In this document: positions 1,892 through 48,428 of the stretch, in pieces | How the letters are laid out: the number at the start of each line of letters is the position of its first letter | How positions within the stretch are numbered: the stretch's first letter is position 1 | The notes under the pieces: generated by a model | Told to the model about the DNA's origin: nothing | Seen by the model: only the letters and a program-made list of their open reading frames with translations | Database searches by the model: none | Translations under genes and position numbers: made by a program | Assembly: GCA_964387845.1 (NCBI GenBank) | Contig: CAYLXA010000010.1 | Coordinates: forward strand, 32,001 to 96,000 | Reading direction: 5' to 3' | Source: an uncultured bacterium | Lineage (GTDB): Bacteria > Omnitrophota > Omnitrophia > Omnitrophales > Abzuiibacteriaceae | Length of the DNA stretch: 64,000 nt

Positions 1892-4800
1892 TTAGGCCGC
1901 TGTTAATTGGGCCCAAGCTGCGCGAAGTTCAGAACGTAAAGATTCGGCGATTTGGTCGACGCCAAAGCGTGTGGTCAATTGATCGGGTGATTCCAGGCGA
2001 GATTCAAACTGAACATTTCGGAGTTCAGAGCGCAATTGATCCGCAAAATGCTCGTCTTTACCTTCCACACCATAAAGCACGAATTTAATATTATTTCCGG
2101 TGATTCCTTTGAGAACGGTTGTCGCATTTGTTCGTGTCACAATGTTCACAGAGTGGTTTGCATTATCATCTCTGAAGAAATGATTTTTCAAGAACGATGC
2201 CTGCATTTGTGTGCCGCCGAAGATAACAACAGGCCCTGATTTTCTCATGACCGTTGCTCCGGCATACGCAATCGGCAGATTTTCCAACATGCCCGGTGCG
2301 ACACCATAAACAATGATTGTTTGATTATCATCGGTTTCAATTGCTTCGCTTTGTCCAGCTGTTAAAGAAACTGCTTCTTGAATTGAAGAATGAGGCAAAG
2401 TCGCATACGCTTCTTCAAATTGATTCGCCGAATTTGCCGCCCGGCCCTTAATTTCCGGCGCAATAACACTTTCCCAAGTTAAAGATTCAAATGAAACGTC
2501 AGATATATTATTTTCCTGATTTATAACGCGTAACTCGGACGAAGGCGGGATTACCAGCTTCGCCAAAGCAGCGCTTTTCGGGTCAGAAAAGCGCAATTTC
2601 GATCGACTTGAACGCCTCCTTTTTTCGCGACTAACACCTGTCTCTGTCTTTAAACGGCGCTGATGGCCACCTCTCGGAAAAACTTTTTTATTATAGGTGG
2701 GCGGCTCTTTTGTCCTAGAAAGTTTTCTATCTGGCCTTGGCTTGCCGCGATGGCTAAGCGCTCCGTAGTTTTGCCAATCATCAAGAACTCCGACTTTCGA
2801 ACCGCGGCGTCCTTGCACAAATTTGTAAATATTGCCCTTGCCATCAATATAAACAAATCTCAAGTCCCATCCATTTATAACTCTATAAACACGATCTGGA
2901 AGGCCATCTCCATCCAATTCAATCAATCTCCATTTGTGCCGGCTGTTTTCCTGAACATATACTTCAATTCTGCCAAATATTTGATGATTAAAATGATGGT
3001 AACCAATCGCTTTAAGCGGCTCCCATTGTCCATATTCATCAGGCTGATTATTCTTGACCCAAACTTCATCTGCAAAGAATTTTTCCCGCAAATTGACAAG
3101 CCTCAGATTTCCTGTGAAACCTGATTCAATAGTGCGATTGGTTTGATAGGCAGCCTGGGCAATCCATGCCATAATTACCTTTGCAATTTTTTGTTTGGAC
3201 CATTTATGATAGTAGTTAGCTGAGAAATTATCGAATGGCTTGAATTGACTTGTGATCAGTTTGTTTGAATCGAGATAAAAGCCTACAGAACCTGTACTTT
3301 CATATCCGTAACCCTCATCAAAACCGACTAGAATTTGATAATTTTGTCTACCTGCGCGAACAATCTGCAACAATACCGGATCTCGCGGAGAATAAGGATT
3401 ATTTAGTTTAACGGTATATGTTTTCCATTTTGGATTATCAAAATTTGGAATAAAATCTGCGTTCGACTTCGCGCGCAATTCGGACTTTGCGTCATCGGGA
3501 CGCGAATGATTGGCCATAGGTGCTTTTTCTACAATTTTATTATCACTATTTTCTATATTGACAGGGCCCCGTTTATTTGATATAAGAAAGTCCTCTTCGC
3601 GCACAAACTGAAAAGGAGAATTAAGAATGGTAGAACGTGAATTCACCGCAAGAGAAGTCGGTGCGCTTGTTGAATCTTTCCGGAATGACATTTCCGCCAT
3701 TGCAGAAGGCGTTAGCGGGTTGGCTGTCCGAATGGATCGGGTAGAAGCCAGACTCGCAGTGGTAGAGGTTAAATTAACGTCTGTTGAAGACGCTGTTCGC
3801 GTGGCGGTTCCCAACCACGAATCCCGCATCACCAAACTAGAATCCAAAGTTTTCGGCCGCTGATTATCTTTGCGCAGCTCGGACTTCAGAGAGGCGATTC
3901 CAAAAAACAATGCCTGGCCCTGTTCATTTTTAATTGTTTTCATCACTTGCAGACCACCATCAATAAACTTTTGAAAAATGGTTTCTGGCATTCGATGGTC
4001 TGCCCTGATTCGGCCCGTTGGACTATCCCAAGCTCCCTCAAGCTGATTATAAAAAGTTGTGGCAAAAATTCCTTTTGGTTTAAGAATACGCCTAATGCTT
4101 CGCGCGGCCCGGCTGGCCCGCTCAGTAGACCAGATTTCGATTCCAGGCTTCAATTGAAGAATGGGCATCCCCTCTTCCCTGACATAATCCCACACTGCTT
4201 CATCATCTAAATTACGGTAATGTTGCTTTGTTTCAGCGTGATTGGTAATCAATGCCCAATATAAAACCGAAGAAGCAATGATTAAATCAAATTGCTGGTC
4301 AGCAAATTGACTTAAATCCAAAATATCTGCCTGAACCGCACTCGCCCCGAACCGTTCTTTCGCAAATTGAACCGCATTCTCGTCGATATCAGCCACAATA
4401 ACATCAGCCCCTTTTTGCCGAAGCCATTCAAGGATACTTCCGTCTCTGGCAGTTCCAATTTCAAGCACCCGCTTGCCTTTCCAATAATCCTTTTTCAAAC
4501 TGTCGATTTCTCTCAATCCATGCAAAATGAGTGGTGCTGTACCGCTAGAAATCATTACATCTTCTTCGCCGCGCAGCTCGGCTCTGGCTTTCCGATTAAT
4601 ATCTGACCCGGGCACTTCATTGTGAGCCGGAGCGGACTTCGCGGCGCCTTGGTTCTCTTGCAAATCAATCGATGACATGAAAATATCCCGCCGCGATGTG
4701 ACATAGCCGGCAACATGCATGGTAGACCCTTCGACCGAAAGAGCGAGCGGCAAGTAGTCTTTGGGAAAGTGAAGCAGGCCATTTTCAAATTGCGTTTGAT

Positions 4801-7800
4801 CAATTTGATTTGAGCGGCGGTCAAGTGCAACAATCGCTGAGCCCACTTCAGGATCTTCCCTATTTAACCGATGTGGTGCAACATGCAGGTATGCGGTATT
4901 TCCAAAAATAGAGTTCGGCCAATCTTGCGTAAAAAGTTGATAGGGTTTTTGATTGATCGTCACTTCTCCTAATAAATTGCCCGCTTGATAAACAAGCTCT
5001 CCTGTCTTGATATCCACAACACCTATACCGCTCAAAGGCGCATGCGAATCAAGAATTAAATGATCCTGATTCGAGCGTAAATATCTCACATATTGAAATA
5101 ATTTCGCATTACGTTCATAAACACCTTCTTTTAGTTTGTCAGTACGCAAATGACCGCTGACAGGATCCAAGGCATAAACTTTAGAGGAGCCCAATCCTGT
5201 GAAAAATAAAACGCCTTGAGTGAAGGTGATAAGCGGCGTTGAAACTATTTCATCGGGAAATACTTGCTTCAAATCGAGAACGCCTTTTTCAAATTTGGCA
5301 TGATCTGGCTTTCCGTCACTCATCCGAAACGCGTGAATATAAGCCTGGCCTTTCCGGGCTCTGTCATCAACCGGATGGACATCTGTCTTTCGATAATAAG
5401 CAGCATACAAAGTTTGTCCATCTTCGCTCACGGCCAACGAGTTAATCCGTGCTTCCGGGTCAATCTTTTTAACCTCGTCCGACAAATTTAAACGTCCGTT
5501 CGACCACTTTTCAGACATTAATGCTTTGCGATCTAAATCAACTGCTAAAATGTCACCCGTGAACGAAGTCAAAATGTAAGCCGCATTTCCTCTGGCCACC
5601 ATTTCACGAGGCATGTCCTGAGACGAGATATGAAAGAATCTCTCATTATTTTGCCGCAACTCGGAGCGGGTTTCGGGCTTCGCTTCCATTAGTTTTTTAA
5701 TTTGAGCGCGTGCTTCTGCAATCATTTGATCCGTAATTTCACCCTGCTCTTTGCCGAGCGCCCCCAAGATTTTCGAATCTAAATTGCTTTTTTGGCTGAG
5801 TTCTAAACTGTCATAACCGATGTCTTTTTTCAATTGAACGATCTTTTTATAATTAGAAAAGGTGCGAAGAAAATTAACAACCGGATCCAGCGAGACATGC
5901 TGCCCATCGTCAGTTGCATAAGATCCCAGCAAATCCAGAGTGGTTGTTGCAATCATCAATTCAATTGCCTGGTTAAATTGATCTTCGCCGCGGATGCCTG
6001 CCTGCTCAAATTCCTGCCTTAATTTCTCCAATTGTTGAGCACGATGAATCGAAAACGCAAAAATGTGATGTTTAATGATTAATTTCAAAAGCGCATTGCT
6101 TGAAACGTCCATTTCACCGAAGTGAATATGATTGTCACTTAACACGCGAAATGATTCGAGTTCATGGCCCGGAAATGAATGGTCTCCATTCTCTTTGAAC
6201 TGCATTTTGGTTTTCTTGCCGATATCATGAAGCACGATAAATGCTTCCAATATCGCGCGGTCTTTTGCATTCCAATCCTTAATCAGATTGATCGCATCTT
6301 TGGGCGCTGTAGTGTTTCGGTCAATTTGATTGAGTGCCGAGAGAATGGCTTGTAAATGGTCCTGAAGTTTAGCATTCTGGCCGCCTTCCCTATGAAACAG
6401 GCTGTGATAATGAGGCGTTTCCAAAAAATCCGCATATTGATCCGGAATGCCAGATAACTGTTTCACCAATTCATCCAATGCTGAAGCCGGCCCATACTGG
6501 CGCAGCTCGGAGCGCTGTTCTTTTATCCATTGCACCAAACGCCGATAGTCAGTAACGCGAAGCGACATGCGGGAATTTCCGGGATTCGGCGCTATGATAA
6601 ACTGGTCGGCGGTTCCTCGAACCTTTTGGTACACAAAGACGAGAAACATACCGTAAAACCCCTGTGATTCCGGAAGGCCCCGGGCAACCCAATCCGCTTC
6701 AAGAATTGACCTGAGGACATTTGCCTTGATGGTCAACTCGTCCGGTTCCTTGTTTGCATCTAATTGTGCGATGACGGATTGAAAATATTGCAGAACTACC
6801 GCGTTTCTCCGTTGACTTTGAAGATCATTCCCCAATCCTTCAAAAAGTTTTTGCGTAAAGCGCTGCGCATTACCCATTTGATTTAAATCACGGACCAATG
6901 CCCGATATTCGCGCCGGTAAGCAAGCCATTCGTCTTCCAAATGCATATCAACGGAGCGCACAACCTTCTTAAATGCTTCCGGACTTGTTATCAATGGCTC
7001 CATGTCTGATTTGCCATGCAATTGCTTAACAAAATCAATCAGATATTTCATGCCCTCATCTGCTTCTCTGGCCAATGCGGCATTGATCAAGTGCGTACCT
7101 TCATGGATCATGACATATTTAATAATCAGAGGTGGAAAATGAAGCGCGAAGTCACGATTGATAGTCACATGAGTCACGCTTCCGTCTAATGAAGTTTTTA
7201 TACGTGCATACGAATGCCTCTGCAAAGAGCTTAATAAAGTGTCATCGAGAACGGGATTTTTTTTAAATGCCTCGATAAATTTTAATGCTGTTTTTTGATC
7301 GTCTAGGTTTGAAATTTCGGAAGCAATTTTTTCAAGGCGGTCCACAACCGCTTGAATTTCAGGGAGAAATTCGGGAGTTCTGATCCACCGCAAGATAGGC
7401 CATGCAGCAAATAAAGCGGTTGTTCCTGCACCGATTATTATTTGCCTGCGGCTTGGCAGCCAAAATTTCTTAGCAGGCTCTTCGCTTTTTACTCCCTGAC
7501 GCCGCTCCTTATTTTTTCGTCCGTTCTCACTTGCGCGCAGCTCGGCGCGGGAATTTCCGCTTGGAAGCTTGATGTTAAATTCTGCGGCTGCGTGGGCCAG
7601 CGCACGGTCGCGGTGCTCTCCATACATCAAAGCTTCCCGATGATTGTTTAGGCCTTTTTTCTTCCGAATTCGCTTTGCTTTATGCACAGAAGCCCTGGTT
7701 GAGTACTTCAAAGAAAGCGGCGCTGCCGGAAGCTGAATGCCGAACCGTTTCGCAGCATTGTAAAGCGCCCTGTCCCGATGCTTGCCTCGGGTTAACTCGC

Positions 7801-10800
7801 GGGCATGACTTTTCCATTTCTTCTTCTCGCGTTTTTTTAACTCCCTGCGAACAGATCCTTCGGTTGGATACTCAAAGGGCACACCTCTTTTTCTTAATTC
7901 GGAACGATGATTAGAAACATGAACTTTTGAGCGAACGGGAAGCTGCTCTGATAAAACCGCTTCGAGCATTTGATCTTTAATCCACCAATGAATCGGGCCA
8001 TTTTGTTTTGTCCAATCACGAATCGCATAACCCACTTCCTTTTGAGCTCGAATAAATAAACTTTCCATATTCCCATTACCATTTTGTGCCCGCGCGATCT
8101 GCTCGGCGAGACCTCGATAAATTCTGGCCGGCTCGAACTGATTGCGCCCATTAGAAGATTGATTTTTCTGAAACGTCGAAACCGCTTCCTCAATGCCGAT
8201 ATGTGTCAACGCATTCTTGGCATTAAAAGATGCGGCGATTCGATCTATTTGCCTTTTCATTTTTCTAAAATATTTCTTCCACGAAACAAAAGCCGGTTTT
8301 TCTCCGGCGCGCCGGATATCGAGCCCCAGCAAGATGCGATTTTGAATCAATTCTCCTTCTGGAATTTGATCTAAATAAAGGCCGTATCGCCCCTCAAAAT
8401 TCTTTTCGTATTCAATTAATTCATCGCGCCAATCTTCAAGTTGTTTGGCATCAACGGCACCGATTAAATTTAGTTCATAAATCAGATGAAGAGCGCGGCC
8501 TGCAAGGCCCAACCACCTGACGGCGTGAAGTAATTCGGAAGATTGGGTGTGTTTTTTCGCTTTATTGAGCGAGCTTCGGATCTGAATTTTCAGAATTCTG
8601 GATTTTCTTTGGCGCCTGTCAAATTCTTCAAACTCATCTTGGCTCATAGTTGGCTCAATAATTAGTTTGGCATTTTTAAATAACTGCTTGAGCGCTCGAT
8701 CTTGATGCAAACCCCTCTCATCCGTCCATTGTTGCCATGTCTGCTCGGAGGATTTTGTCGGTGAAAGCGGCTTTCTATCCCGTCCGGCTTTCGTTATTTT
8801 AAGGTTTCCGGTCTCAGCCCAATAACCCAGCCGTTTTGCTTCAAGTTGAATCAGATATCGCTCGGTTCCCTCAAGCGGACCCGGAACAAATTTTTGAACA
8901 CCAACTAAACCACGGTCCGTCAGATAAGCACTATAAACAAAATCAACCAAATGGCCTTTTCGATCGGTCTTTGGATTGGTGCTATACAAATCGATCCGCT
9001 TTGTAAAAGTCCGGCCATCTTGCTTTTCTTGAACATTGCGAAACACCATGAAAAATCTTCGCGGCTTTTCCGGAGTACCTACGCCCGCCCACTTAGGCCG
9101 GAGCGGTATGAAAAACCTTGTGTTTTTTGGCTTTAAAAATATTCCTGTTTGATGGCGGTTATGGTTGTGGCTATGCGTTATGGTTTTTGGCTCAATGGGA
9201 AGCGGTTCCTCTCCCGTCTTGATCCACTGTTGTATGCGTCTTTGAAATTCTTCTTCATCTTTTAGAAATTGCTTGGTTTCCAAATCCACGTAAAACACGA
9301 CCTGATGCTCCGGTTTATTCGAAACTTTTCCGCGTGCGATTCTCCTCACCCGCCAATAAACATTCTGCTTGAATGAGAAAACGGTAATTTCTAGGTCATC
9401 CCGATTTGAAAAATATTGTGAGGGCAGATAGAGCCGGCGCATGTTTTTTGCTTTTGGTAAGGGGAAAAACACGGTATTGGCATATTTGCCTTTTCGGACA
9501 TGTTTTAAAACAGCCTCTTTCAAAATTCTAACGGCAGGAGGGCCGGATTCGCGTTGAAAAGTTAAATGAAAAAGTTCCTTGCGGACCTGTTCAAACTGAT
9601 CAGGAAAAATAATTCCTTGCTTAGGTTGAAAACCGGTTAACGCATCAAATTCGAGCGTTCCCACTGCAGGCCTGAAAGGAAGTAAATGAACCTGCATTTG
9701 CGGACGGCGTTTGTCATCCGCGGAATCCCGGGTCCATATGACGCGCGGTTCTCCGGTCGGATATTGAAAAAGAGCCCACTTAACCGGCACTTTTGCTTCA
9801 TGCAATTGGCCGTTTCGAAGATAAGAAAAGGATGTAATGAAAGGCGGTCGTCTTTTTTGTAGTCGCTGAAAAATACTATCCTGGTATGCATGAAGGCGCC
9901 GCGGGATCATAAAGCCGGAGGGTTGCGCCCGTTGGCCCATTAAAAAATCCCGTAAAAGCTGAGAACGCGAGCTATCGCGAACTTTGTTTGTGCGAAAATG
10001 GTCGGCCAATTCCATTTCCCGAATCAAAAACCGGTAACTCTCCTGAGGATCCACTTGAATTCCCAAACCTGCTTCGCCTCCGGTTGTGTTACCAATTTTC
10101 TGAGTTTGTGATGAAACATAAGAAATAAAACGGCCTTCCCCTGCCGCGGCCAATAATTTCTGTTCATCCCAATTGACCATGAATAAGCGCGGATCATCCG
10201 TTTTGAGGAGCGCTGAATGGCTTTCCGGTGACAGAAGCCAAGCACGCTCCAAAAGATCTGCCCGATCTAATAGTGCCGCTGTTGAAATCCGGCCAAGGCG
10301 AATAAAATCTGAAACAGTTATCTGATGCGCAAATAACTGACTCTCACGATATTGGCGTTCTTCATTCGAAAGCGAAGCCAGATAAGGAAGCGCGTCTGTT
10401 TGAGAAAGATCTTCTTCCTTTGAAATACGGCGCGACGAAGATGGGCGTGGCTTCGGAACGATTTGCATTGTTTCGCTATTTTGACGCAGCTCGGAGCGGG
10501 ATTGAGACTGTTTTTGGCGAATTAATTTCACGGCTTCACGAACGCTAACACCCTTGCCTCGCATATCCATGTAATCAAATGCTAAATCTGCGTTTCCGTT
10601 GCTTAATTTCCAGGCAATAAACGCATTAATCACCGCATACGGATACATCCATCCTTGTCCTTTGTCTGTTAATGGATTCGGATCAAAGACACCGAAATTT
10701 TGCCGAGTCATTCCAATGGCATTTTCTTCTGCATATTCGTAAGCTTTATCGCCGGCTTCCCTGAGACTTCGGTCCAATTCTGCAGGCAATTGATCAACAT

Positions 10801-13800
10801 ACATCATCATTACTTCCCCGATACTGGTACCTTTATTGAAATTTCCTTTTACATATTTTTCAAAGAAAGATTGTTTTAATATATTGAGATCCCCTTTACT
10901 TTTTTGCAAGATTCTTAATGCGGCATAACCTTCGGCAAGTAACGCATCGTTATCAATATATTTCAAACCAGATCTAAGTTTTTTTCCAAATTTATGCGTC
11001 AATTCGTGAGCAATTAGAAGACGGAGTCCCCACCCAGAGCCCATGCGTTTTAATTCGTTAGGATTAATTCGAATTCCATAATCAAATCCCGTGGCAAGCG
11101 TGTCGGGAAGCATTGCCACAGCAGTCGGTTTATTTTTAATCCAGATTGTTACGCCGACAGCAGCCAGACCGATAGCAGCAAAACCAAATAAAAAATCACG
11201 ACGTGTTAGTTTTTGTTTCGATTTAGTTTTATTTTTTCTTTCTAAGAAATATTTGAGGGAAAATATTGAGAAAATTCCGCTCAACAATGATAAGAAAATG
11301 GATAAGAATGTTAGGTATGCTTTTGGCTGCTCGATTGCAACCCCTATTGAGTCTGTTAAACGATTAATCAATTCTTCTTTTTGTTGCACAGATAAATCAA
11401 CGGCGTAACGATTTATAAAAAACTCAACTTCTTCCCGTACAATTTTTCTCTGTTCTTGGTCTAATTGAAAAACAAACGGTTTGTTCGATTCGCGCAACTC
11501 GGAACGGGATTTTCTCAAATCTATGTCAAGTAAATGCTGCAAAGCTAATCTCACCTTCTCTTCTTCCATGCCATCCAACTCTTGAAGTTGCCGGTCTGTA
11601 AATGCTTGGATCAAGCGTGCCATGGCTATGGACCGTGTAGAAAATTGATGCAGGTAATCATCAACGATCTGTTTTTGTTTTGCGCTTACTTGTTCCATCG
11701 AAATTTCGTTACGAGGAGGAAGGTTAAATGGATTTGGCGAACTATCATTTTGATTTAAATCATCGTAAGCTTGCCACAGAGCTCCGTTCTTACCGTAAAA
11801 ATATTTGCCCCACAATTGCATTCTGATATCTGAAACTTCCTTCCATTCTTTGTCGGCATCATTGATATCGGTTTCAAAAACGTATGGCGCTTTTTCCTCA
11901 TTAATTCCAATCGACGCCTCAAGCGGACCAAAAATAAGCGCCCCAGATTCAGAATCGACAGTGTTAAGGCCTTCTTGAACATAGCCATGCAGGGTATGAT
12001 TCATGAGCCAATTGAAATAATCATGCACAACTTGATTAAATCTCTTCGCACTCATTGATCTTCCATTCCAATGCTCTGCGAGAAGCCTGTCAAAAGCGCT
12101 TTTCTCTCTCGACGCGCCATTTTCTATAGGTTCTGAACGCAGCTCGGCCCTTGAGCCGAGCGGGCTCAAGGACGGCTTCGGCATCGCAGCTCGTTGCGGC
12201 AAAGTCCGAGCCGCCCTTTGTTGCAGCAGTTCCGACTTCGAATCGGCTGGAGTCGAAGTACGGACAGTCCTCAACTCCGCTCGAGCTGAGGACTCAGCGT
12301 GGACGGGGTTTAAATTAGGTGCTTTTTTTACAATTTTATTATCGCTATTTTTTATATTGACAAAGCCCTGATTGTTTGATATAAAAAAAGTCCCTTCGCG
12401 CGCAAACTTTAGGAAAGAAGAGAAAATACGATGACCAAAATTCCAAAGCCCGGCTCCGAATATTCTGAAGAGCGTGAATTCCGCGTCATTTTGGAGCATC
12501 TTGAAAGCCAGTTCCGTACTTTTGGTGAGGGGATGAACCGGATGGAACAAAAACTTCAAAAACTGGACGGCATTGATCGCAGACTGACTAGCGTAGAAGA
12601 AGATGTTGGATTGATTAAGGTCAATCTTAAACAAATTAATATTGATCTTAGAGAAGTCAGAGGTGATATCATGGTTCTGAAAACTGACGTTAGAGTCTTG
12701 AAAAGCGCTTTCAAACCATTCACCGCCCAAGTTTCCGATCACGAGCACCGGATTTCCGCTCTTGAGCGTTCCCGTTAAACGCAATTCCGATCGACTTAAA
12801 GGTAGCTGCAATACCTTCGTGATATGATTTTCAACCCATGGCCATAATTCTTTTGTGATAGATTTGAAATAATCGGAAGAAACTTGATACGGGCGCGCGC
12901 CAAACTGGATCTGATTGGCCAAATCAACCAAATCTATTAAGTGCCGCGCATCGGCTCCGATGAGATAGAAAAGAAATAAGTATTCCTGGGCAATTGTCAA
13001 ACCACCTTTATTTTGCCGACTAATGACCAGGAATGCGTGATATCTCAAAGATTCTTCCAAGATCACCTCTGGATTCCCTTTTGAATCAAACAAGCGAGCT
13101 TGTTTGATCCTTTGATTGAACAATGCCGTGTTGCGCTTTTGCTTTAATGCGTTTTCTATAAACAACGGGTGATACAAATCTTGATTGTATGCCCAGTGCA
13201 GAAAACGGAATTGGCTGAAACTCTCGTAAAATTCGGATGAAATATTTTCAGCAGCTAATCTTGAGATATCGGATAAATGTTTAACTGCAAAATTGGGAAT
13301 TCCTGATTTTTGAGGCCACCTTCTTTCTCCTAACGGAATTTTCTGAAATTCTTGCATAACACCTTGTAATTCTGAAACATTTTTCGGCATCCAATTTTTT
13401 GATTTTGACAAATAATGAACCCCATAAGCTTCCCTGACAATGACAGATGCCAAGTTTTCAACAAAATAATCCTCGGCATATGGAAATTGGTTAATCAATT
13501 TCACGGAATCAAAAAAAGATTTCACGTTGATTTCTAAATCGATTTTTCCGTTCTCATCAATTGTTTTTTGAAAATGAATCCCCAAATTAGCTGCTTCCTG
13601 CGGCAGCAGTTTAGCCTGTTTGACTAATTCGGAGTAATTCTTAAGAATGTCAGTATTCGGATATCCTTTGGCAATTAACCAGTCGATTGTTTTTTGAATA
13701 GCGTTTTGAACACTTGCTAAATCGGCACGCGAAAGTTGAATCTCGTCCATCAGGGATTTATTTTGTTTAAAAGATTTTCGAACGGCGTAAATCGTACCTG

Positions 13801-14236
13801 CTATCAATGAACCGCTGACGGTTAAGCCTAGCCCATATTTAATAACGGTTCTTCGTGATAAATCCGTTCCTCCTTTTGTCTCTTTTGTTTTATCTTTTTC
13901 TTTTGTTCTCAGCTCGGACTTCTTTTGAGTATTTCGTATCTCGTGAAACGTATCTCGGTGCAGCGGCTCAGCGTGGTTTGCTTCGGGATTCGTGACCCGC
14001 GTATCGTGTTTCGCAACCGATTCACGATTCACGAACGACGATTCACTGGATTGATTTTGCACCAAACTTCTCAACTCGGAAAGTGCGGCGGGAGAATTGG
14101 CGGTGAGGCGCGGGACGTTCAGCGACGGAACGGAGGAAGCATAGGAATTAGGAATGGACGGAGATAGTCCGATGGTGTTCTGGATTGAAAAGCAGAAGAT
14201 GATCAGAATCGCGGTAATTTTAAGGTATTGCTTCAA
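1892..14236 (-). CDS. Giant (4114 aa) modular membrane-anchored polyprotein. It has an N-terminal signal peptide, several TM helices, a SAM-methyltransferase-like module, an HD-domain module, two HExxH zincin-like motifs and a propeller-like region, all separated by a recurring [RK][SA]ELR motif
   Basis: The reading frame stays open for 12,345 nt, which cannot happen by chance. The start is probably TTG at 14236, preceded by AGGAAA. The N-terminus MKQYLKITAILIIFCFSIQNTIG is signal-peptide-like. Motifs seen: VLEIGTARDG...DLIIASSVLYW (class I SAM-MTase), FIVLHDIGKK...HEL...KHH (HD), AHELTHKFG and IHEGTHLIN (HExxH). Seventeen [S/A]ELR motifs are spread through the protein. Confidence 0.75.
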   Translation of the reverse strand: MKQYLKITAILIIFCFSIQNTIGLSPSIPNSYASSVPSLNVPRLTANSPAALSELRSLVQNQSSESSFVNRESVAKHDTRVTNPEANHAEPLHRDTFHEIRNTQKKSELRTKEKDKTKETKGGTDLSRRTVIKYGLGLTVSGSLIAGTIYAVRKSFKQNKSLMDEIQLSRADLASVQNAIQKTIDWLIAKGYPNTDILKNYSELVKQAKLLPQEAANLGIHFQKTIDENGKIDLEINVKSFFDSVKLINQFPYAEDYFVENLASVIVREAYGVHYLSKSKNWMPKNVSELQGVMQEFQKIPLGERRWPQKSGIPNFAVKHLSDISRLAAENISSEFYESFSQFRFLHWAYNQDLYHPLFIENALKQKRNTALFNQRIKQARLFDSKGNPEVILEESLRYHAFLVISRQNKGGLTIAQEYLFLFYLIGADARHLIDLVDLANQIQFGARPYQVSSDYFKSITKELWPWVENHITKVLQLPLSRSELRLTGTLKSGNPVLVIGNLGGEWFESAFQDSNVSFQNHDITSDFSKININLFKIDLNQSNIFFYASQSAINAVQFLKFLFHPVHPLTKSTELAFKMLQNDAEFTLFRIFGAGLWNFGHRIFSSFLKFAREGTFFISNNQGFVNIKNSDNKIVKKAPNLNPVHAESSARAELRTVRTSTPADSKSELLQQRAARTLPQRAAMPKPSLSPLGSRAELRSEPIENGASREKSAFDRLLAEHWNGRSMSAKRFNQVVHDYFNWLMNHTLHGYVQEGLNTVDSESGALIFGPLEASIGINEEKAPYVFETDINDADKEWKEVSDIRMQLWGKYFYGKNGALWQAYDDLNQNDSSPNPFNLPPRNEISMEQVSAKQKQIVDDYLHQFSTRSIAMARLIQAFTDRQLQELDGMEEEKVRLALQHLLDIDLRKSRSELRESNKPFVFQLDQEQRKIVREEVEFFINRYAVDLSVQQKEELINRLTDSIGVAIEQPKAYLTFLSIFLSLLSGIFSIFSLKYFLERKNKTKSKQKLTRRDFLFGFAAIGLAAVGVTIWIKNKPTAVAMLPDTLATGFDYGIRINPNELKRMGSGWGLRLLIAHELTHKFGKKLRSGLKYIDNDALLAEGYAALRILQKSKGDLNILKQSFFEKYVKGNFNKGTSIGEVMMMYVDQLPAELDRSLREAGDKAYEYAEENAIGMTRQNFGVFDPNPLTDKGQGWMYPYAVINAFIAWKLSNGNADLAFDYMDMRGKGVSVREAVKLIRQKQSQSRSELRQNSETMQIVPKPRPSSSRRISKEEDLSQTDALPYLASLSNEERQYRESQLFAHQITVSDFIRLGRISTAALLDRADLLERAWLLSPESHSALLKTDDPRLFMVNWDEQKLLAAAGEGRFISYVSSQTQKIGNTTGGEAGLGIQVDPQESYRFLIREMELADHFRTNKVRDSSRSQLLRDFLMGQRAQPSGFMIPRRLHAYQDSIFQRLQKRRPPFITSFSYLRNGQLHEAKVPVKWALFQYPTGEPRVIWTRDSADDKRRPQMQVHLLPFRPAVGTLEFDALTGFQPKQGIIFPDQFEQVRKELFHLTFQRESGPPAVRILKEAVLKHVRKGKYANTVFFPLPKAKNMRRLYLPSQYFSNRDDLEITVFSFKQNVYWRVRRIARGKVSNKPEHQVVFYVDLETKQFLKDEEEFQRRIQQWIKTGEEPLPIEPKTITHSHNHNRHQTGIFLKPKNTRFFIPLRPKWAGVGTPEKPRRFFMVFRNVQEKQDGRTFTKRIDLYSTNPKTDRKGHLVDFVYSAYLTDRGLVGVQKFVPGPLEGTERYLIQLEAKRLGYWAETGNLKITKAGRDRKPLSPTKSSEQTWQQWTDERGLHQDRALKQLFKNAKLIIEPTMSQDEFEEFDRRQRKSRILKIQIRSSLNKAKKHTQSSELLHAVRWLGLAGRALHLIYELNLIGAVDAKQLEDWRDELIEYEKNFEGRYGLYLDQIPEGELIQNRILLGLDIRRAGEKPAFVSWKKYFRKMKRQIDRIAASFNAKNALTHIGIEEAVSTFQKNQSSNGRNQFEPARIYRGLAEQIARAQNGNGNMESLFIRAQKEVGYAIRDWTKQNGPIHWWIKDQMLEAVLSEQLPVRSKVHVSNHRSELRKRGVPFEYPTEGSVRRELKKREKKKWKSHARELTRGKHRDRALYNAAKRFGIQLPAAPLSLKYSTRASVHKAKRIRKKKGLNNHREALMYGEHRDRALAHAAAEFNIKLPSGNSRAELRASENGRKNKERRQGVKSEEPAKKFWLPSRRQIIIGAGTTALFAAWPILRWIRTPEFLPEIQAVVDRLEKIASEISNLDDQKTALKFIEAFKKNPVLDDTLLSSLQRHSYARIKTSLDGSVTHVTINRDFALHFPPLIIKYVMIHEGTHLINAALAREADEGMKYLIDFVKQLHGKSDMEPLITSPEAFKKVVRSVDMHLEDEWLAYRREYRALVRDLNQMGNAQRFTQKLFEGLGNDLQSQRRNAVVLQYFQSVIAQLDANKEPDELTIKANVLRSILEADWVARGLPESQGFYGMFLVFVYQKVRGTADQFIIAPNPGNSRMSLRVTDYRRLVQWIKEQRSELRQYGPASALDELVKQLSGIPDQYADFLETPHYHSLFHREGGQNAKLQDHLQAILSALNQIDRNTTAPKDAINLIKDWNAKDRAILEAFIVLHDIGKKTKMQFKENGDHSFPGHELESFRVLSDNHIHFGEMDVSSNALLKLIIKHHIFAFSIHRAQQLEKLRQEFEQAGIRGEDQFNQAIELMIATTTLDLLGSYATDDGQHVSLDPVVNFLRTFSNYKKIVQLKKDIGYDSLELSQKSNLDSKILGALGKEQGEITDQMIAEARAQIKKLMEAKPETRSELRQNNERFFHISSQDMPREMVARGNAAYILTSFTGDILAVDLDRKALMSEKWSNGRLNLSDEVKKIDPEARINSLAVSEDGQTLYAAYYRKTDVHPVDDRARKGQAYIHAFRMSDGKPDHAKFEKGVLDLKQVFPDEIVSTPLITFTQGVLFFTGLGSSKVYALDPVSGHLRTDKLKEGVYERNAKLFQYVRYLRSNQDHLILDSHAPLSGIGVVDIKTGELVYQAGNLLGEVTINQKPYQLFTQDWPNSIFGNTAYLHVAPHRLNREDPEVGSAIVALDRRSNQIDQTQFENGLLHFPKDYLPLALSVEGSTMHVAGYVTSRRDIFMSSIDLQENQGAAKSAPAHNEVPGSDINRKARAELRGEEDVMISSGTAPLILHGLREIDSLKKDYWKGKRVLEIGTARDGSILEWLRQKGADVIVADIDENAVQFAKERFGASAVQADILDLSQFADQQFDLIIASSVLYWALITNHAETKQHYRNLDDEAVWDYVREEGMPILQLKPGIEIWSTERASRAARSIRRILKPKGIFATTFYNQLEGAWDSPTGRIRADHRMPETIFQKFIDGGLQVMKTIKNEQGQALFFGIASLKSELRKDNQRPKTLDSSLVMRDSWLGTATRTASSTDVNLTSTTASLASTRSIRTANPLTPSAMAEMSFRKDSTSAPTSLAVNSRSTILNSPFQFVREEDFLISNKRGPVNIENSDNKIVEKAPMANHSRPDDAKSELRAKSNADFIPNFDNPKWKTYTVKLNNPYSPRDPVLLQIVRAGRQNYQILVGFDEGYGYESTGSVGFYLDSNKLITSQFKPFDNFSANYYHKWSKQKIAKVIMAWIAQAAYQTNRTIESGFTGNLRLVNLREKFFADEVWVKNNQPDEYGQWEPLKAIGYHHFNHQIFGRIEVYVQENSRHKWRLIELDGDGLPDRVYRVINGWDLRFVYIDGKGNIYKFVQGRRGSKVGVLDDWQNYGALSHRGKPRPDRKLSRTKEPPTYNKKVFPRGGHQRRLKTETGVSREKRRRSSRSKLRFSDPKSAALAKLVIPPSSELRVINQENNISDVSFESLTWESVIAPEIKGRAANSANQFEEAYATLPHSSIQEAVSLTAGQSEAIETDDNQTIIVYGVAPGMLENLPIAYAGATVMRKSGPVVIFGGTQMQASFLKNHFFRDDNANHSVNIVTRTNATTVLKGITGNNIKFVLYGVEGKDEHFADQLRSELRNVQFESRLESPDQLTTRFGVDQIAESLRSELRAAWAQLTAA
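3558..3586 (+). promoter_or_regulatory. Consensus sigma70 promoter (TTGACA, 17-nt spacer, TATAAG) driving the nested antisense small ORF A
   Basis: TTGACA lies at 3558-3563, the spacer gggccccgtttatttga is 17 nt, and TATAAG lies at 3581-3586. An AAGGAG RBS sits at 3612-3617 and the ATG at 3627. An AT-rich UP-like tract lies upstream. Confidence 0.55.
3627..3863 (+). CDS. Small ORF A (78 aa) nested antisense inside the giant gene; paralog of ORF B
   Basis: It has a perfect promoter and RBS. The protein MVEREFTAREVGALVESFRNDISAIAEGVSG...LTSVEDAV...NHESRITKLESKVFGR shares EREF, ESFR, LTSVE(D/E)D/A and HE.RI..LE with ORF B. The stop codon abuts an RSELR-encoding motif of the giant gene. Confidence 0.5.
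   Translation: MVEREFTAREVGALVESFRNDISAIAEGVSGLAVRMDRVEARLAVVEVKLTSVEDAVRVAVPNHESRITKLESKVFGR
4215..4540 (-). other. SAM-dependent methyltransferase-like module within the giant ORF
   Basis: Encodes GKRVLEIGTARDGSILEWLRQKGADVIVADIDENAVQFAKERFG...FDLIIASSVLYW, matching Rossmann motif I and post-I of class I methyltransferases. Confidence 0.6.
5900..6420 (-). other. HD-domain (metal-dependent phosphohydrolase) module within the giant ORF
   Basis: The H...HD...H...H pattern is present as LQDHLQA, FIVLHDIGKK, FPGHELES and KHHIF. Confidence 0.55.
7091..7115 (-). other. HExxH motif (IHEGTHLIN), candidate zincin metallopeptidase site in the giant ORF
   Basis: The motif is read directly from the translation. 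No further family assignment is possible without an HMM search. Confidence 0.4.
10988..11020 (-). other. HExxH motif (LLIAHELTHKFGKK), candidate zincin metallopeptidase site in the giant ORF
   Basis: The motif is read directly from the translation and resembles ImmA/IrrE- or SprT-like minimal zincins. Confidence 0.4.
12357..12385 (+). promoter_or_regulatory. Consensus sigma70 promoter (TTGACA, 17-nt spacer, TATAAA) driving the nested antisense small ORF B
   Basis: TTGACA lies at 12357-12362, the 17-nt spacer is aagccctgattgtttga, and TATAAA lies at 12380-12385. An AGGAAAGAAGAG RBS precedes the ATG at 12431. About 36 of 40 nt upstream are identical to copy A (tacaattttattatc[a/g]ctatttt[c/t]tatattgaca). 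Confidence 0.55.
12431..12778 (+). CDS. Small ORF B (115 aa) nested antisense inside the giant gene; paralog of ORF A
   Basis: The protein is MTKIPKPGSEYSEEREFRVILEHLESQFRTFGEGMNRMEQKL...LTSVEEDV...DHEHRISALERSR. It is coiled-coil-like and homologous to ORF A. The stop codon abuts an SELR-encoding motif on the opposite strand. Confidence 0.5.
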   Translation: MTKIPKPGSEYSEEREFRVILEHLESQFRTFGEGMNRMEQKLQKLDGIDRRLTSVEEDVGLIKVNLKQINIDLREVRGDIMVLKTDVRVLKSAFKPFTAQVSDHEHRISALERSR

Positions 14237-34516: not shown

Positions 34517-34968
34517 CTTCTCTTATCCTTTCTGGTTCTGCCCGAGCTCACTTCAAGCAAAGGCATAAGAGAAGAAACGGTGGGATTTATTTCAGCGTCT
34601 CTTTCAAAATGCCCCTCTGAGAATCTTTCGAAAAAGAATCTCTCAGAAGGGCTTTGAAAGAGTCCTTCTAAGAAGATTGGCAACCCAGCCTTCCTCACCC
34701 GTCCGTGTAGGAACCGTGGCTTTGCGTCACCGGATTACTCCCCCGCTAAACTGAATAGCGAGTCCGCCAAGATTTGTGGCGGAAGTTTTGCCTTTTTCAG
34801 ACCTCCTAAAATGTGAGCTTTCAACGAGCAACTTGCTTAATAAAAAGGTGCCCCATGACTTTTTTAATGTCAAGAGTAACACCCCTCTTTTTTCAATACA
34901 AAAGGGAGTTATTTTAACGCTTAAATATGTATGTAAGTCATTAATATATAATGACTTACATCAATTTA

Positions 34969-37900
34969 TTAGGAGAATAATGCGGGTTGTCTGCGAGTCG
35001 ACCACTGAGGAAAAAGAGGAGATAACAGTTGGCTGACATCAATTCCTAAGCCGGCAAATCCTGAAAAAACAGGCGGAACCGGCGGAATATTGGGAAAAAG
35101 GAGGTTTCCGTTAAAAAACACATTTCCGGAAGGCTCATTGGGGCCGCCTAAATCGAAATTCAGGTCGGTATTCGGATTCACTAATTCACCATTAATATCA
35201 CCGTCGATGCTAATCGATGTACCGCCGCCATCTTGGCCGCCTGCGATTGTGGTCAGAACCGCACCGTTATTAATATCAACATCGATGCCGTCACCGGTGA
35301 CGCCAATCGTACCGCCTGCTGTTATACTGGAATCGGATCCGGCCGTAATATTATTCGCTGCACCGTTTCCATCCAGGACATTTCCGGTTGTGGCTTCAAT
35401 CATCACACTGCCATTGCCGGCATTAATGGTTCCTAAAATAAGGTCACCTGTCGGCGTAATCACGCAAATATCGCCATTCGCAACGGATGAATTGGCATTG
35501 ATCGTCGCCCCATCGGCCTCCATGATGAAAATACCGCCGGTTTGGCTGATCGCGTTGATCGTATTCGCTGCGGTATTCATTTTATTGAGAAGTGTTCCGA
35601 CCGAATTTCCAAAAAATTCAATATTGCTGCTCGTAATCACCGTTCCGATATTTCCGTCATCAAAAACATTGCCTGCTTGCGCCGTAAAACTCGCTGAGTT
35701 GGTCGTGTTCACACTGCCGACGGTGATATCGCCCGCCGTTGTGGTCAATGAAAAATCAGAATAACCGTTGATGCCTGTTGCCGAAGAAGCGCCGCCTGCT
35801 GTTGCGGTGACTGAGCCATTGGTCAAAAAGTTAGCGCCCGTAAAATTCATCCCGTTCAAACTGTTCATCGCAATGTTGCCATTCGCCGTGCTTTGAGCCA
35901 CAAATGAATTCACATTAAAATCAATGTCGCCGTTTGCAAGTGCAGAACCAATATTCCCAAGCGCCGTCAAGGAAAGTGAATTTGCATTAATCCGCGTTGA
36001 TTGCACAAAATCATCCACGATATTTCCGCCGGATGCGGTCAATGTTACATCGCCGTTGCCGGCATTGATACTTTGCAACGCCGCATCACCCAGAACCATA
36101 TCGCCTGTGGCGCTATTAATATTGATATCGCCATTCGCAGCCGAAGAATCCAAACCTTGAATGGTGACCGCGTCTAATTCATCAATAAAAATACCGCCGT
36201 TATTTGCAGTAATGCTGAGCGTAGCTGCTGCTGTGTTAATTTTGTTAGCAAGTGTCCCAACGGCATCTCCGATTAATGTGATGAGCCCGCCTGTGATTCT
36301 GGTAGCGTTGTTGGCGTCATCCACCAAATTTCCAGCTGCCGCCGAAAGCACCACATCACCCAAGCCTGCGTTGATGGTTCCAATGGTTAAATTGCCGAGT
36401 GTTGAAACAACATCAATCGTGCCATTTGCAGCCGAAGAATTCATATTGTTCAAAGTTGCGCCATTGGATTCACGCAAGAAAATGCCGCCGGCGTTTGCGG
36501 TTGCGTTCAATGTTGCTGCCGTCGTATTAATTCTCGCCGCCAAAGTTCCGATTGCATTTCCGACAAGCGTAATCACGTTGCCGCTTAAATTAGAAGTAGC
36601 ATCTACCAGATTTCCCGCGAGCGCTGTTAAACCGATATTTCCGGCTGTCGTGATAGTGCCAAGATTTAGATCGCCGGTTGTGGACGTCACATTGATATCG
36701 CCGGAACCCGTTGTGGCACCGACGGTCGCTCCGTTGGATTCTGTGACGTTGATTTCGCCTGTGCCGGTTCCTGTGATGTTAAGAGTTGTGGCCGTGGTAT
36801 TAATCGCAGCGCCTGATTGACCCACGTCACCGTCCGCGCCGCCTGCAATTAAGTTCACAATCACACCTGCAACACTGGAAGCCACGCCACCCAATAAGTC
36901 ACCTGCCAAAGCTGTTAAAGTTACATTGCCGGTTGTGGAGATGGTTCCAAGCGTTAAATCACCGGTGGTTGTTCTGACATCAATATTGCCGGAACCTGTC
37001 GTGGCGCCGACTGTCGCTCCGTTCGACTCTGTTACGAAAATATCGCCTGTGCCCGCACCGGTTAAGTTTAACGTGCCGGCCGTGGTCATAATTCGTCTCG
37101 TAGAAGTTCCGACATCACCGTCCGCGCCGCCCGCTGCGAGATTGACTGTAGTGCCGGTTACGGATGAATCCGCGTTCGTGTCGGTCACATCGCCATTTGA
37201 AGCAGCTAACGTCACTGCATTCGTAGCGCTCACGGTCCCGACTTCGAGATCACCCGAAGTGGTTGTCATGGAAAAATTTGTGTAGCCGGTTGCGCCGGTA
37301 ATGGACGAAGCACCCTCGGTTGTAACTGTCACAGACCCGGCGGTAACAAAATCAGCGCCCGTTAAAGTCGCGCCGCCGCCTGCGATTCTCGCAAAAATAT
37401 CACCATTACCAGAACTTGTCAGCGCTCCGACATTAGTAGTGGATGTGATATCCACGTCGCCATTCGCAGCTGATGAACCGATATTACTGGACGCGGTCAT
37501 GTTCACAGTTGAAGCAGAAACCGCCGTCGCTTGATTTCCGTCATCTAAAATGTGCCCGGCGTTGGCATTAACCGTCACCGTGTTTTCGGCATTCACAGTG
37601 CCAAGCGTCACATTACCGGTGGTTGCCGTTAAATCGATATTGTTTGTGCCGGTCCCGGTGGCAGAAGCATTGACGACCGTTAAATCACCGGCAGCCGTAA
37701 TAATAATTGAATCATTTACGGCAGATGCGTTGTTAACCGTCAGCGCCTGATCATTGGTAACGATAATTCGCCCATTGGCAGCAGCTGCATTCAGGGAGTT
37801 TGCACTAAGGTCAATATCGCGATTGCCGGTCGTTTGTCCGATATCCACCGCCGCATTGAGCGTTACTTCGTCGCCCGTAATTCGGGTTGCATCATCGTTA

Positions 37901-40167: not shown

Positions 40168-40185
40168 TAACACTCTTTCCTCTTG

Positions 40186-40215
40186 GATTTCCCTGAGTTC
40201 GGAAGCTGACTGCCA
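40186..40215 (-). promoter_or_regulatory. Conserved 5'-leader element of tpsA (TCAGCTTCCGAACTCAGGGAAATCC on the mRNA), copy 1
   Basis: Near-identical to 45449-45477 upstream of the second tpsA. It lies 20-50 nt upstream of the start codon. Confidence 0.45.
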
Positions 40216-40490
40216 TGACGGTTGCAACCGTTTTAGGCTCTTGAGTTTTGCCTCATTCTACGCTCAGTCGCTTACGCGCTGGGCTTCGAAGAGCTCTACG
40301 AAGCCAAGCCGCGAAGGACTTGGCGAAGTAGAGGCCTTACTCTTTCGAGTAATTTGCCTCCGCCATACAGCGTAGCGGATCCGCCACGCTTTGTGGCGGA
40401 CTTTCGTTCAGAGATAAGATGATAAAACTAAAAAAAATTTTACCATATTGAGAAGATATTGCAAAAATTAAGATAAAAAACAGATAAAAC

Positions 40491-47426: not shown

Positions 47427-47795
47427 GACCTCTCCCTCGTTAGACTTGTTATAAAGTGAGCCTGAGAATAGTGGTTATTTTATGCTTCGATAAATTTTTT
47501 GCAAGTACTTTCGAAATTTAATTTAAGGGGTTTGGTGCTATTAAGATCGGCAAAAGAGGCCTAAACATTAGGAGGTTACACGAAAGACAATAGAGAAGAA
47601 AGAAGGAAATAACCGACCGAAGTTAGAAAAGCCGGCTACGACTGTAACCGACCCCCGCCAGATAGGCGGAAAGGCAAAAGCCAGATTTCGAACCCAGTCG
47701 GAGAGTTTGTTTTCGAGTTGGGCTTGCCTTTTTCATAACTTCAAAGCCGTTGTTAAAGATCTAAAAAAACAAAATTAAAGCCTCTAAACGGTGAA

Positions 47796-47838
47796 AATCC
47801 CGCCCGCCACATATTCCGGCGGACGGGATTTTTAAATC
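47796..47838. terminator. GC-rich hairpin (AAATCCCGCCCGCC-loop-GGCGGACGGGATTT) followed by T/A runs; bidirectional rho-independent terminator candidate
   Basis: The stem and flanking U-runs are visible on both strands. It lies downstream of the small minus-strand ORF 47868..48008. Confidence 0.5.
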
Positions 47839-48008: not shown

Positions 48009-48428
48009 TGCTCACCCCCTTAGAATTTCAGCTTCGGGCTCTCCTACTAAAACAGCCCGAGCCGACATCCTAAAGAACCAGGCCAGCCGCCGGCAGAACC
48101 GGTTTTTGGCCTACATAAAAGATAACTCAGTGAGAATTAATTGCAAGTTGAGTGCCCTTTTTCCAGATAAAAAAGACTTCCTTTTTTTAATAAAAAAAGT
48201 CAGGCCTTTTGAACTTTTAATTTTGTTAACACAGCACGATTTTTTTCTAACAACTTGGCATAAAAATTAGTCAGGATTTGAAAAATTGTGGTCGTTATTA
48301 TTATGGACTTGATTTGGAAAGCAGCTCTCTGATATTATTTTAGTCAGTCGCTGCATCCAAAGCGGCAAGTCTTTCTTAAAATTATTTGGGTCTTATTTTA
48401 GAAGCGAAGTTTTTGAAAGGAGAACGAA

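Follow-up and report, generated by a model that had tools for sequence, protein, structure and literature searches.

How does a bacterial gene of 12.3 kb come to carry a dense cluster of palindromes within its coding sequence? This question is raised by a 64,000-nucleotide stretch of DNA from an uncultured member of the Omnitrophota (GenBank assembly GCA_964387845.1, contig CAYLXA010000010.1, positions 32,001 to 96,000; hereafter the window, with coordinates counted from its first letter). The ORF list of this window includes a giant mosaic open reading frame (ORF) of 4114 amino acids (aa) at 1892..14236 on the minus strand, with a TTG start and an N-terminal signal-like segment. The original prediction, made from the letters alone, had noticed three consecutive hairpins in this ORF, in a segment encoding two “AELR linkers”, and had proposed an in-frame insertion, an RNA element or a recombination site. 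We find that the segment (12131-12304) is two tandem, partly eroded copies of a ~90-nt two-hairpin repeat, members of which occur in other giant ORFs at the junctions between modules, where a short peptide motif is conserved.

All three hairpins are in the sequence. They comprise a 9-bp stem, CCTTGAGCC-GAGCG-GGCTCAAGG, at 12149-12171; a 7-bp stem, ACTTCGA-N11-TCGAAGT, at 12235-12259; and (A)GTCCTCA-N13-TGAGGAC(T) at 12266-12294, the stem of which is 8 bp and not the 7 bp first given. The low-complexity peptide quoted for the segment was likewise correct, the ORF being on the minus strand. A fourth stem, GCTCGGC-N6-GCCGAGC at 12142-12161, overlaps the hairpin at 12149-12171 and brings to four the perfect stems of 7-9 bp within 12131-12304. 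Perfect hairpins (stem of at least 7 bp, loop of 3-15 nt) occur at 1.17 per kb in the window, which corresponds to ~0.2 expected in 170 nt where four are seen, a clustering well above chance. RNA folding, which had been suggested as a check, gave -87.4 kcal/mol for 12125-12305 on the mRNA strand (z = -4.6), compared with z = -3.1 for the other strand and z = -3.9 with DNA parameters, and none of 200 shuffles was as stable in any of these runs. When the giant ORF was scanned in 408 overlapping intervals of 120 nt, the five most stable were all at the hairpin segment (-46 to -54 kcal/mol, against an ORF mean of -24.9 and a standard deviation of 6.6). Their GC content is 0.57-0.64, compared with 0.44 across the ORF, and they remain ~3 standard deviations under the trend once energy is regressed on GC. 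The segment is the most structured and most GC-rich part of the ORF, and the codon-usage score of the giant frame, which is positive nearly everywhere, drops to zero there.

Neither a simple promoter and terminator scan, which showed no enrichment, nor a search of 11900-12900 against Rfam, which returned nothing above noise, recognized the segment, and there is no U-tract at the hairpins. The exact 23-nt sequence with the 9-bp stem has no second copy in the window, even with up to three mismatches allowed. As the literal stem is single-copy, the family to which it belongs is recognizable only through its structure and flanking sequence. The original prediction had treated a lack of other copies of this stem as a sign of a chance effect, and by that test the finding would have been wrongly rejected.

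The full element is ~90 nt long and consists, from its 5' end, of CCGAG[C/G]TGC, hairpin A (9 bp, 5-nt loop), a spacer of ~10 nt, hairpin B (CCTYR...YRAGG, 9 bp, 5-nt loop) and GCCGAG[C/G]TGCG. The flanking direct repeats, CCGAG[C/G]TGCG, are the DNA of the junction peptide and read [SA]E[LV]R. At the loci of three other giant ORFs (L001, L003 and L004), many of the most structured parts of the ORF consist of a motif, a GC-rich spacer and a second motif, as do nine of the twelve listed in L004. There, a 90-nt unit occurs at least seven times in the order CGCTCCGAGGTGCAC, hairpin A, ACTCCTCAGT, hairpin B (CCTCGnnnC, loop, GnnnCGAGG) and GCCGAGGTGCGG. We aligned six of the L004 copies, which had been picked by peptide motif alone and not by pairing. 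In these, 99.1% of cells are paired and 9 of the 18 pairs change on both sides, with 19 compensatory cells, no one-sided changes and no G-U pair in 108 cells. Covariation that is almost purely Watson-Crick was also found in a wider alignment of 21 copies from 12 loci (99 compensatory cells; 4 G-U among 378 cells). Direct repeats of 9-10 nt flank every full copy (alignments A4 and A5). Hairpins A and B are each self-complementary, but neither is an inverted copy of the other. Their loops are reverse complements (CGACC/GGTCG) in 4 of the 28 copies examined, and in the window the loop of hairpin A in copy 1 (GAGCG) complements that of hairpin B in copy 2 (CGCTC); with such complementary loops, both strands display the same kind of hairpin. 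At L024, L047 and L066, and in copy c3 of L004, we also observed a hairpin, CCTCGCCTC-GGTCG-GAGGCGAGG, whose loop and 3' arm encode RSEAR in one frame.

Two covariance models were built solely from other genomes, R1 from the six L004 copies and R2 from the 21 copies of 12 loci, and were searched against the window; the E-values given here are rough, as calibration was shortened. R1 matched at 12218-12304 and 12131-12201 only, and with R2 (filters off, whole window) every match below E = 3 was inside the giant ORF. Thus, the search for further copies that had been proposed fails for the literal stem and succeeds for the family. Copy 1 (12218..12304, minus strand; R2 36.2 bits, E 1.4e-6; R1 27.9 bits) folds, and has its hairpin A at 12266-12294, where the 3' arm happens to encode the first AELR (12269-12280), and its hairpin B, imperfect in the inner part, at 12235-12259. 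Both of its repeats are degenerate, the 3' repeat TCGGAACTGCTG reading SELL (12224-12235). Copy 2 (12131..12201, minus strand; R2 41.4 bits, E 8.5e-8; R1 26.9 bits) has lost hairpin A and retains a perfect hairpin B, CCTTGAGCC-CGCTC-GGCTCAAGG (12149-12171), directly after which the 3' repeat GCCGAGCTGCG reads AELR (12137-12148), an arrangement also seen in L004, where hairpin B is followed by GCCGAGGTGCGG. In copy 2 the 5' repeat, ACGAGCTGC (12186-12194), does not lie in frame, and as ACGAGCTGCG it reads RAA in a different frame. Its retention in another frame gives the flanking repeat a DNA-level identity in addition to its peptide-level one. A third, decayed copy, which also folds, lies at an SKLR...SELR junction (2522..2608, minus strand; R2 25 bits, E 5.6e-4), with hairpin A (GCGCTTTTC-TGACCC-GAAAAGCGC) intact and hairpin B eroded. 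All three window copies are inside the very long ORF, in sense orientation and at a module boundary.

The same restriction to giant ORFs and the same constancy of frame were found in metagenomes. A pattern of hairpin B followed by RAE[LV]R had 90 exact matches, 31 of them with stems of 8-9 bp. About two thirds of these 31 lie in ORFs that measure 556 to >4344 aa and frequently run off both ends of the contig; there the constant frame reads RAE[VL]R and most matches have GAGSTG 37-40 nt upstream. Most of the other long-stem matches have an unpaired hairpin A and look like chance, as do those with only 4-6 pairs, which are in short ORFs. R1 finds five or six copies in the giant ORF of L001. This locus also has an intergenic two-hairpin copy at 8094-8182, between the MR_MLE and DUF819 genes, which is a better match on the strand opposite both genes and carries an additional outer inverted repeat of 10 bp, GCAATCTCAG...CTGAGATTGC.

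The two “AELR linkers” are present, but they are only 2 of 17 [RK][SA]ELR motifs in the ORF; the original prediction had missed fifteen further motifs, distributed over the whole ORF, and an adjoining antisense gene (see below). All six frames of the remaining 52 kb contain only 6 [SA]ELR. The motifs, all on the minus strand, begin with SELR at 14069..14080 (aa 53-56) and KSELR at 13907..13918 (aa 107-110), the latter with a segment after it that resembles a twin-arginine translocation (TAT) or transmembrane (TM) signal. Module 1 ends with RSELR at 12779..12790 (aa 483-486), which directly adjoins the stop codon of antisense small ORF 1. The two motifs at the hairpins are RAELR at 12269..12280 (aa 653-656), within hairpin A of copy 1, and RAELR at 12137..12148 (aa 697-700), directly 3' of hairpin B, after which the module of aa 703-913 begins. 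They are followed by RSELR at 11492..11503 (aa 912-915), 10484..10495 (aa 1248-1251) and 7892..7903 (aa 2112-2115), RAELR at 7535..7546 (aa 2231-2234), and RSELR again at 6500..6511 (aa 2576-2579) and 5654..5665 (aa 2858-2861). RAELR at 4571..4582 (aa 3219-3222) has the methyltransferase module after it, while KSELR at 3872..3883 (aa 3452-3455), 8 nt beyond the stop codon of antisense small ORF 2, and KSELR at 3473..3484 (aa 3585-3588) stand on the two flanks of the second antisense cassette. SSELR at 2528..2539 (aa 3900-3903) serves as 3' repeat in the third copy of the element and is followed by the start of the conserved C-terminal module; RSELR at 2018..2029 (aa 4070-4073) is within that module, and the last, RSELR at 1922..1933 (aa 4102-4105), stands nine residues before the C-terminus of the protein, which ends in ...AAWAQLTAA.

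The junction motif is conserved at the peptide level. With sites defined by DNA (up to three mismatches to TCCGAGCTGCGC), every one of the 13 in-frame sites in the window encodes [SA]ELR, and synonymous differences among the DNA-defined sites are in excess (p = 4.5e-5). Thus, the motif is maintained as a peptide. We considered and rejected the idea that all junction motifs are structured: in the sliding scan, structure is found only at double-motif segments, and most junctions in the giant ORF are a solo motif without hairpins.

The motif also marks the boundaries of shuffled, gene-sized modules. It divides the giant ORF into pieces of 120-860 aa, several of which open with TAT- or TM-like segments (hydrophobic segments read from the sequence), and the module boundaries at motifs fall where stand-alone homologues end and where homology stops. 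For example, the module at aa 925-1238 corresponds to stand-alone metagenomic proteins of 340-480 aa, and modules match the stand-alone proteins P0013, P0015, P0017, P0018 and P0021. The giant frame has the best codon-usage score in nearly all 300-nt intervals, and its product is in the public protein set (P0001), differing by one residue, a Met for the TTG start codon. The only Pfam matches are to a methyltransferase (aa 3253-3397) and, weakly, to an HD domain. Separate translation starts for the modules were rejected, as all nine in-frame candidates for a Shine-Dalgarno sequence with a start codon fall outside the 90 residues that follow a motif. Two modules, at aa 913-1249 (~10490-11500) and aa 2232-2577 (~6510-7540), both on the minus strand, have TM- or TAT-like starts and HExxH sequences (IAHELTH and MIHEGTH), and it is possible that they are metalloproteases that Pfam does not recognize. 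A short module at aa 2113-2232 (~7540-7900, minus strand) has an internal repeat, G(K/E)HRDRALYxAAxxFxIxLP, and is present in several copies in another giant protein, P0008.

A comparison with a close relative shows the shuffling at a single locus. At the syntenic locus L001, where the order is MR_MLE, DUF819, giant ORF and LeuC, the giant protein (P0002) has only its first module (79% identity) and last module (66%) in common with the window protein, and the internal modules are entirely different. The breakpoints of this homology are at the motif, and the homology of P0002 to module 1 ends exactly at the SELR of RSELR 12779..12790. The flanking genes called in the window and in L001 are metabolic. 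For the LeuC that adjoins the giant ORF, all source-named best matches (79-83% identity) are from Candidatus Omnitrophica/Omnitrophota, and relatives with an 83% identical LeuC have no giant ORF beside leuC. A word-indexed protein search with aa 640-1250 gave no match, and a species-representative genome collection scanned with alignments of module 1 and the C-terminal module gave no relative. An exhaustive HMMER search recovered P0001 and about twenty other proteins, many of them giants of 2-7 thousand aa (kaa). Each of these proteins has one module in common with the window ORF, at a differing position, and modules recur in varying order across the giant ORFs. In most of the proteins RSEVR, RAEVR, RSEAR or RSELR is reiterated, at ~3 per 1000 aa. 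One multi-enzyme giant from a Logan assembly (P0004, 5638 aa) has another reiterated linker, KPGSSDMEA, at least eight times at module boundaries. Its homologue of the module after the hairpin segment (aa 703-913) starts at the equivalent point and is bounded by this linker. As the linker of P0004 differs, the junction motif appears to be lineage-specific. In the giants that we compared, the C-termini are mostly Ala-Ala (...AQLTAA in the window protein and P0002, ...IEAAA in P0007 and ...IRTAA in P0008).

The hairpins adjoin a gene that is antisense to the giant ORF. On the plus strand at 12316..12408 is a promoter-like block (TTGACA at 12357-12362, 17 nt, TATAAA at 12380-12385, with an AT-rich stretch before it), a 93-nt repeat that is 85% identical to a second such block at 3517..3609 (plus strand; TTGACA at 3558-3563, 17 nt, TATAAG at 3581-3586). 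The simple promoter scan listed neither block, the first because the last base of its -10 hexamer is A. In the four giant ORFs searched, TATATTGACA-N17-TATAxx was found only at three cassettes. A ribosome-binding site and a small coiled-coil ORF come after each block: ORF 1 at 12431..12778 (plus strand, 115 aa), which is fully within the giant ORF, and its paralogue ORF 2 at 3627..3863 (plus strand, 78 aa). A homologue of ORF 1 is called as a gene on another contig (P0023; 66% identity over 87 aligned codons). The identity is 66% in the plus frame versus 39% in the antisense frame, and differences fall on plus-frame codon positions 1, 2 and 3 in the pattern 29/13/51, which indicates that the plus frame is under selection and that the small gene is real. 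This pattern led us to reject the idea that the giant frame produces the small plus-strand ORFs as an artefact.

The giant frame is open through both window cassettes, and junction motifs stand on both sides of each cassette, as they do around the hairpin spacer. On the P0023 contig, the opposite-strand frame is open across P0023 and a second called small gene, bracketed by RSEVR. In L003, the same promoter block and a homologous ORF are antisense inside a distant giant ORF (P0007), which reads through them. The unit found in distant genomes comprises the promoter-like block, a ribosome-binding site and a coiled-coil ORF of 80-115 aa that ends in ...HExRIxxLE. The element lies beside an antisense cassette both in the window and in L002. 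The antisense unit of L003 is at ~9020-9340 (minus strand of the locus) and that of L002 at 1012-1296.

What, then, is the two-hairpin element? We consider it probable, with moderate confidence, that it is an in-frame palindromic element resembling repetitive extragenic palindromic (REP) sequences and Rickettsia palindromic elements (RPE), associated with the motif found at the junctions of a mosaic gene that is organized like a polyprotein. Among the options that the original prediction had listed, an in-frame insertion like a REP sequence or a miniature inverted-repeat transposable element (MITE) is the one favored by the R1 and R2 matches, the compensatory changes in the stems and the bracketing direct repeats. 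Such an element would arise at, or insert into, the junction sequence and duplicate it, and its stems would be kept through selection on base pairing rather than on the peptide. The host would tolerate it because it is translated as a short low-complexity spacer with the junction motif on both sides. Given the hairpins whose loop and 3' arm encode RSEAR, the peptide at the junction and the sequence of the hairpins may share an origin. The module arrangement suggests that the giant protein is built from exchangeable pieces, and it may be cut apart at the joints: the junction motif would most probably be a recognition site and plausibly a processing site. Processing would let the giant product act as a polyprotein of independent modules, and junk spacers, including the antisense read-through of the two embedded small genes, could be discarded. 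Mobility with target duplication, proteolytic processing and a benefit to the host would all belong to this scheme.

Several observations weigh against this interpretation. The window copies are eroded, scoring ~27-41 bits versus 92-109 for the L004 copies. Most junctions of the giant ORF are solo motifs without hairpins, which means that the element is not required at a junction. The 21-copy alignment was chosen for paired stems, and in it only the covariation is independent evidence, not the percentage paired. At no junction with otherwise identical surroundings did we see the element cleanly present in one case and absent in the other; in L001, module 1 is followed by an additional hairpin spacer, but the module downstream differs too. 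No transposase, REP-associated tyrosine transposase (RAYT) or integrase turned up, although none was searched for, and mobility is therefore something that we infer. A wider proposal, which is tentative and on present evidence unlikely, is that Omnitrophota giants are polyproteins of exchangeable cassettes in which one junction (CCGAG[C/G]TGCG at the DNA level, R[SA]E[LV]R at the peptide level) would be both the target for recombination or insertion of an element resembling attC or REP and the processing site. Translation of the whole array would force antisense genes and selfish repeats to be free of stop codons, and 12131-12304 would be a footprint of the cassette machinery.

Other explanations account for parts of these data. 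The two-hairpin unit and its core repeats could be a recombination site, an in-frame crossover point like the attC sites of integrons at which modules and the antisense cassette are exchanged at CCGAG|STGCG. L001, with the same flanking genes and first and last modules, other internal modules and homology that breaks at the motif, is what such exchange would leave behind, as are the different module orders among giant ORFs. As in attC sites, structure is conserved and stem sequence is not; the complementary A and B loops in 4 of 28 copies, the loop complementarity between copies 1 and 2 and the position of the element next to the antisense cassette in the window and L002 also fit. However, there are no attC core sites (RYYYAAC/GTTRRRY), the repeats on the two flanks are direct and not inverted, most junctions have only a solo motif, and homologous recombination between motif repeats would shuffle modules equally well. 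No recombinase gene was identified, with no dedicated search made, and overall we think a dedicated recombination site unlikely. Loss of stop codons could instead have fused neighboring genes, in which case the hairpins would be fossil intergenic spacers, former REP- or terminator-like sequences that are readable by accident, and the motif would be their flank. One L001 copy is indeed still intergenic, the modules are whole stand-alone proteins, and N-terminal TAT- or TM-like segments are kept just after the motif. Such fusion would not explain why solo motifs are conserved as peptides, why the element keeps one frame in distant genomes or why the giant frame is open through antisense genes in three genomes, and we regard it as very unlikely.

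A further possibility is an RNA signal in the giant mRNA, whether for ribosome pausing during folding or cleavage of the upstream module, or as a determinant of processing or stability that would adjust module expression levels relative to each other, like the REP hairpins of operons. So few G-U pairs (0 of 108 and 4 of 378 cells) would be uncommon in RNA helices and are expected of DNA palindromes, and the intergenic L001 copy is antisense to both flanking genes. Both points disfavor the pausing or attenuating element of the original prediction, as do the missing U-tract and Rfam match and the lack of hairpins at most junctions. In its favor, the mRNA strand folds most strongly (z of -4.6 versus -3.1), the element is always sense-oriented between modules within giant ORFs, and codon usage scores zero at the hairpins, so that the peptide itself is not the constrained feature; even so, an RNA function seems distinctly improbable. 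Finally, the palindromes could have arisen by chance in a GC-rich, low-complexity coding stretch, which would fit the single copy of the literal 9-bp stem in the window. The fold statistics (z of -3.1 to -4.6, none of 200 shuffles as stable in any run) speak against this, models from other genomes match exactly at the hairpins, and the family covaries. The L004 covariation and the R1 and R2 matches at 12131-12304 exclude chance, to which we assign a negligible probability.

The preferred interpretation, an in-frame REP/RPE-like element, invites comparison with known systems. RPE (reviewed in PMC10969869) are short, palindromic and repeated, and insert in frame into genes that encode proteins. 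By description, and not by sequence, they would be the closest analogue in behavior: in both cases, short multi-copy palindromic repeats are inside ORFs, the frame is intact and the extra peptide is tolerated. However, RPE are ~150 bp, form Rickettsia-specific sequence families and occur in unrelated housekeeping genes, whereas the window element measures ~90 nt and has two separate 9-bp hairpins. So far as our data show, it is restricted to places where modules meet in giant mosaic ORFs of Omnitrophota, and the direct repeats on either side of it encode a conserved junction peptide. The dispersal of RPE in many unrelated genes has no parallel here, as all matches below E = 3 in the 64 kb are in one ORF. 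With the REP sequences and bacterial interspersed mosaic elements (BIME) of proteobacteria, the element shares GC-rich paired stem-loops, covarying stems and one intergenic copy, and a role in mRNA stability is conceivable. REP and BIME are extragenic by definition, whereas the three copies in the window, and almost all of their relatives, lie within ORFs. REP are linked to RAYT transposases and have a conserved tetranucleotide at the hairpin foot; no RAYT was identified in the window and loci, which cover parts of genomes, no RAYT search having been made. The terminal inverted repeats that MITEs derive from a parent insertion sequence are lacking, since neither hairpin is an inverted copy of the other, and the direct repeats of 9-10 nt around every full copy may or may not represent a target-site duplication.

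Like attC sites and cassette arrays of integrons, the element conserves structure rather than sequence, unit content varies from one close relative to another, and some units bring a promoter of their own and point the opposite way. The RYYYAAC...GTTRRRY core sites are not found in alignments A4 and A5, where the flanking repeats are direct (CCGAGSTGC); no integrase or attI was seen, with no dedicated search made; and the whole array is kept as one ORF, which integrons never require. The giant protein itself resembles the multi-enzyme giants of the same phylum, described under the name “multi-enzyme metabolic cluster” (bioRxiv 10.64898/2026.06.07.730766) and as giant genes of Omnitrophota (bioRxiv 10.1101/2023.11.21.568195), in having many unrelated domains in one ORF together with a signal peptide and TM segments, although at 4.1 kaa it is under the 10-kaa threshold of those studies. 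Text searches of both papers turned up no linker, cleavage or polyprotein, and in the former they turned up no palindromes, hairpins or antisense either. In the literature that we searched, the motif, the element and the antisense cassettes are undescribed, and nothing links Omnitrophota giant genes to linkers, polyproteins or palindromes. Viral and eukaryotic polyproteins likewise have a short conserved motif at each unit boundary and internal units without their own start signals; they differ from the present case, which is in a bacterial host and reads through antisense genes and DNA repeats, and in which cleavage would be a prediction. The larger system behind the element, so far as we infer it, could be new in kind.

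How Omnitrophota proteins of thousands to >100,000 residues with dozens of unrelated enzymes are built, expressed and used is a current puzzle. The reiterated peptide motif, the in-frame structured repeat, the shuffling of modules and the antisense genes within an open frame provide handles on it. They make testable the ideas that giants are polyproteins, that they grow by cassette exchange and that selfish palindromic DNA colonizes the joints of genes. If only the conservative reading holds, this would be a second clear case, after the RPE of Rickettsia, of an in-frame palindromic repeat family in coding sequence, to which strong covariation evidence and a defined target are added.

Elsewhere in the window, a second long ORF (34969-40227, minus strand, 1752 aa) has a single SASELR near its N-terminus and is matched by neither R1 nor R2. 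Just downstream of it, at 34676-34802 (minus strand), is a c-di-GMP-I riboswitch (Rfam RF01051) that scores 42.6 bits and so exceeds the gathering score, the sole match in the window that reaches the Rfam gathering threshold. Only one other site in the 64 kb has at least three clustered perfect hairpins, at ~48.0-48.3 kb. We considered this cluster as a relative of the 12131-12304 segment and rejected it as a plain, ordinary intergenic region, in which terminator-like stems at 47790-47835 and 48030-48100 lie near a 50-aa membrane ORF and a ferredoxin gene.

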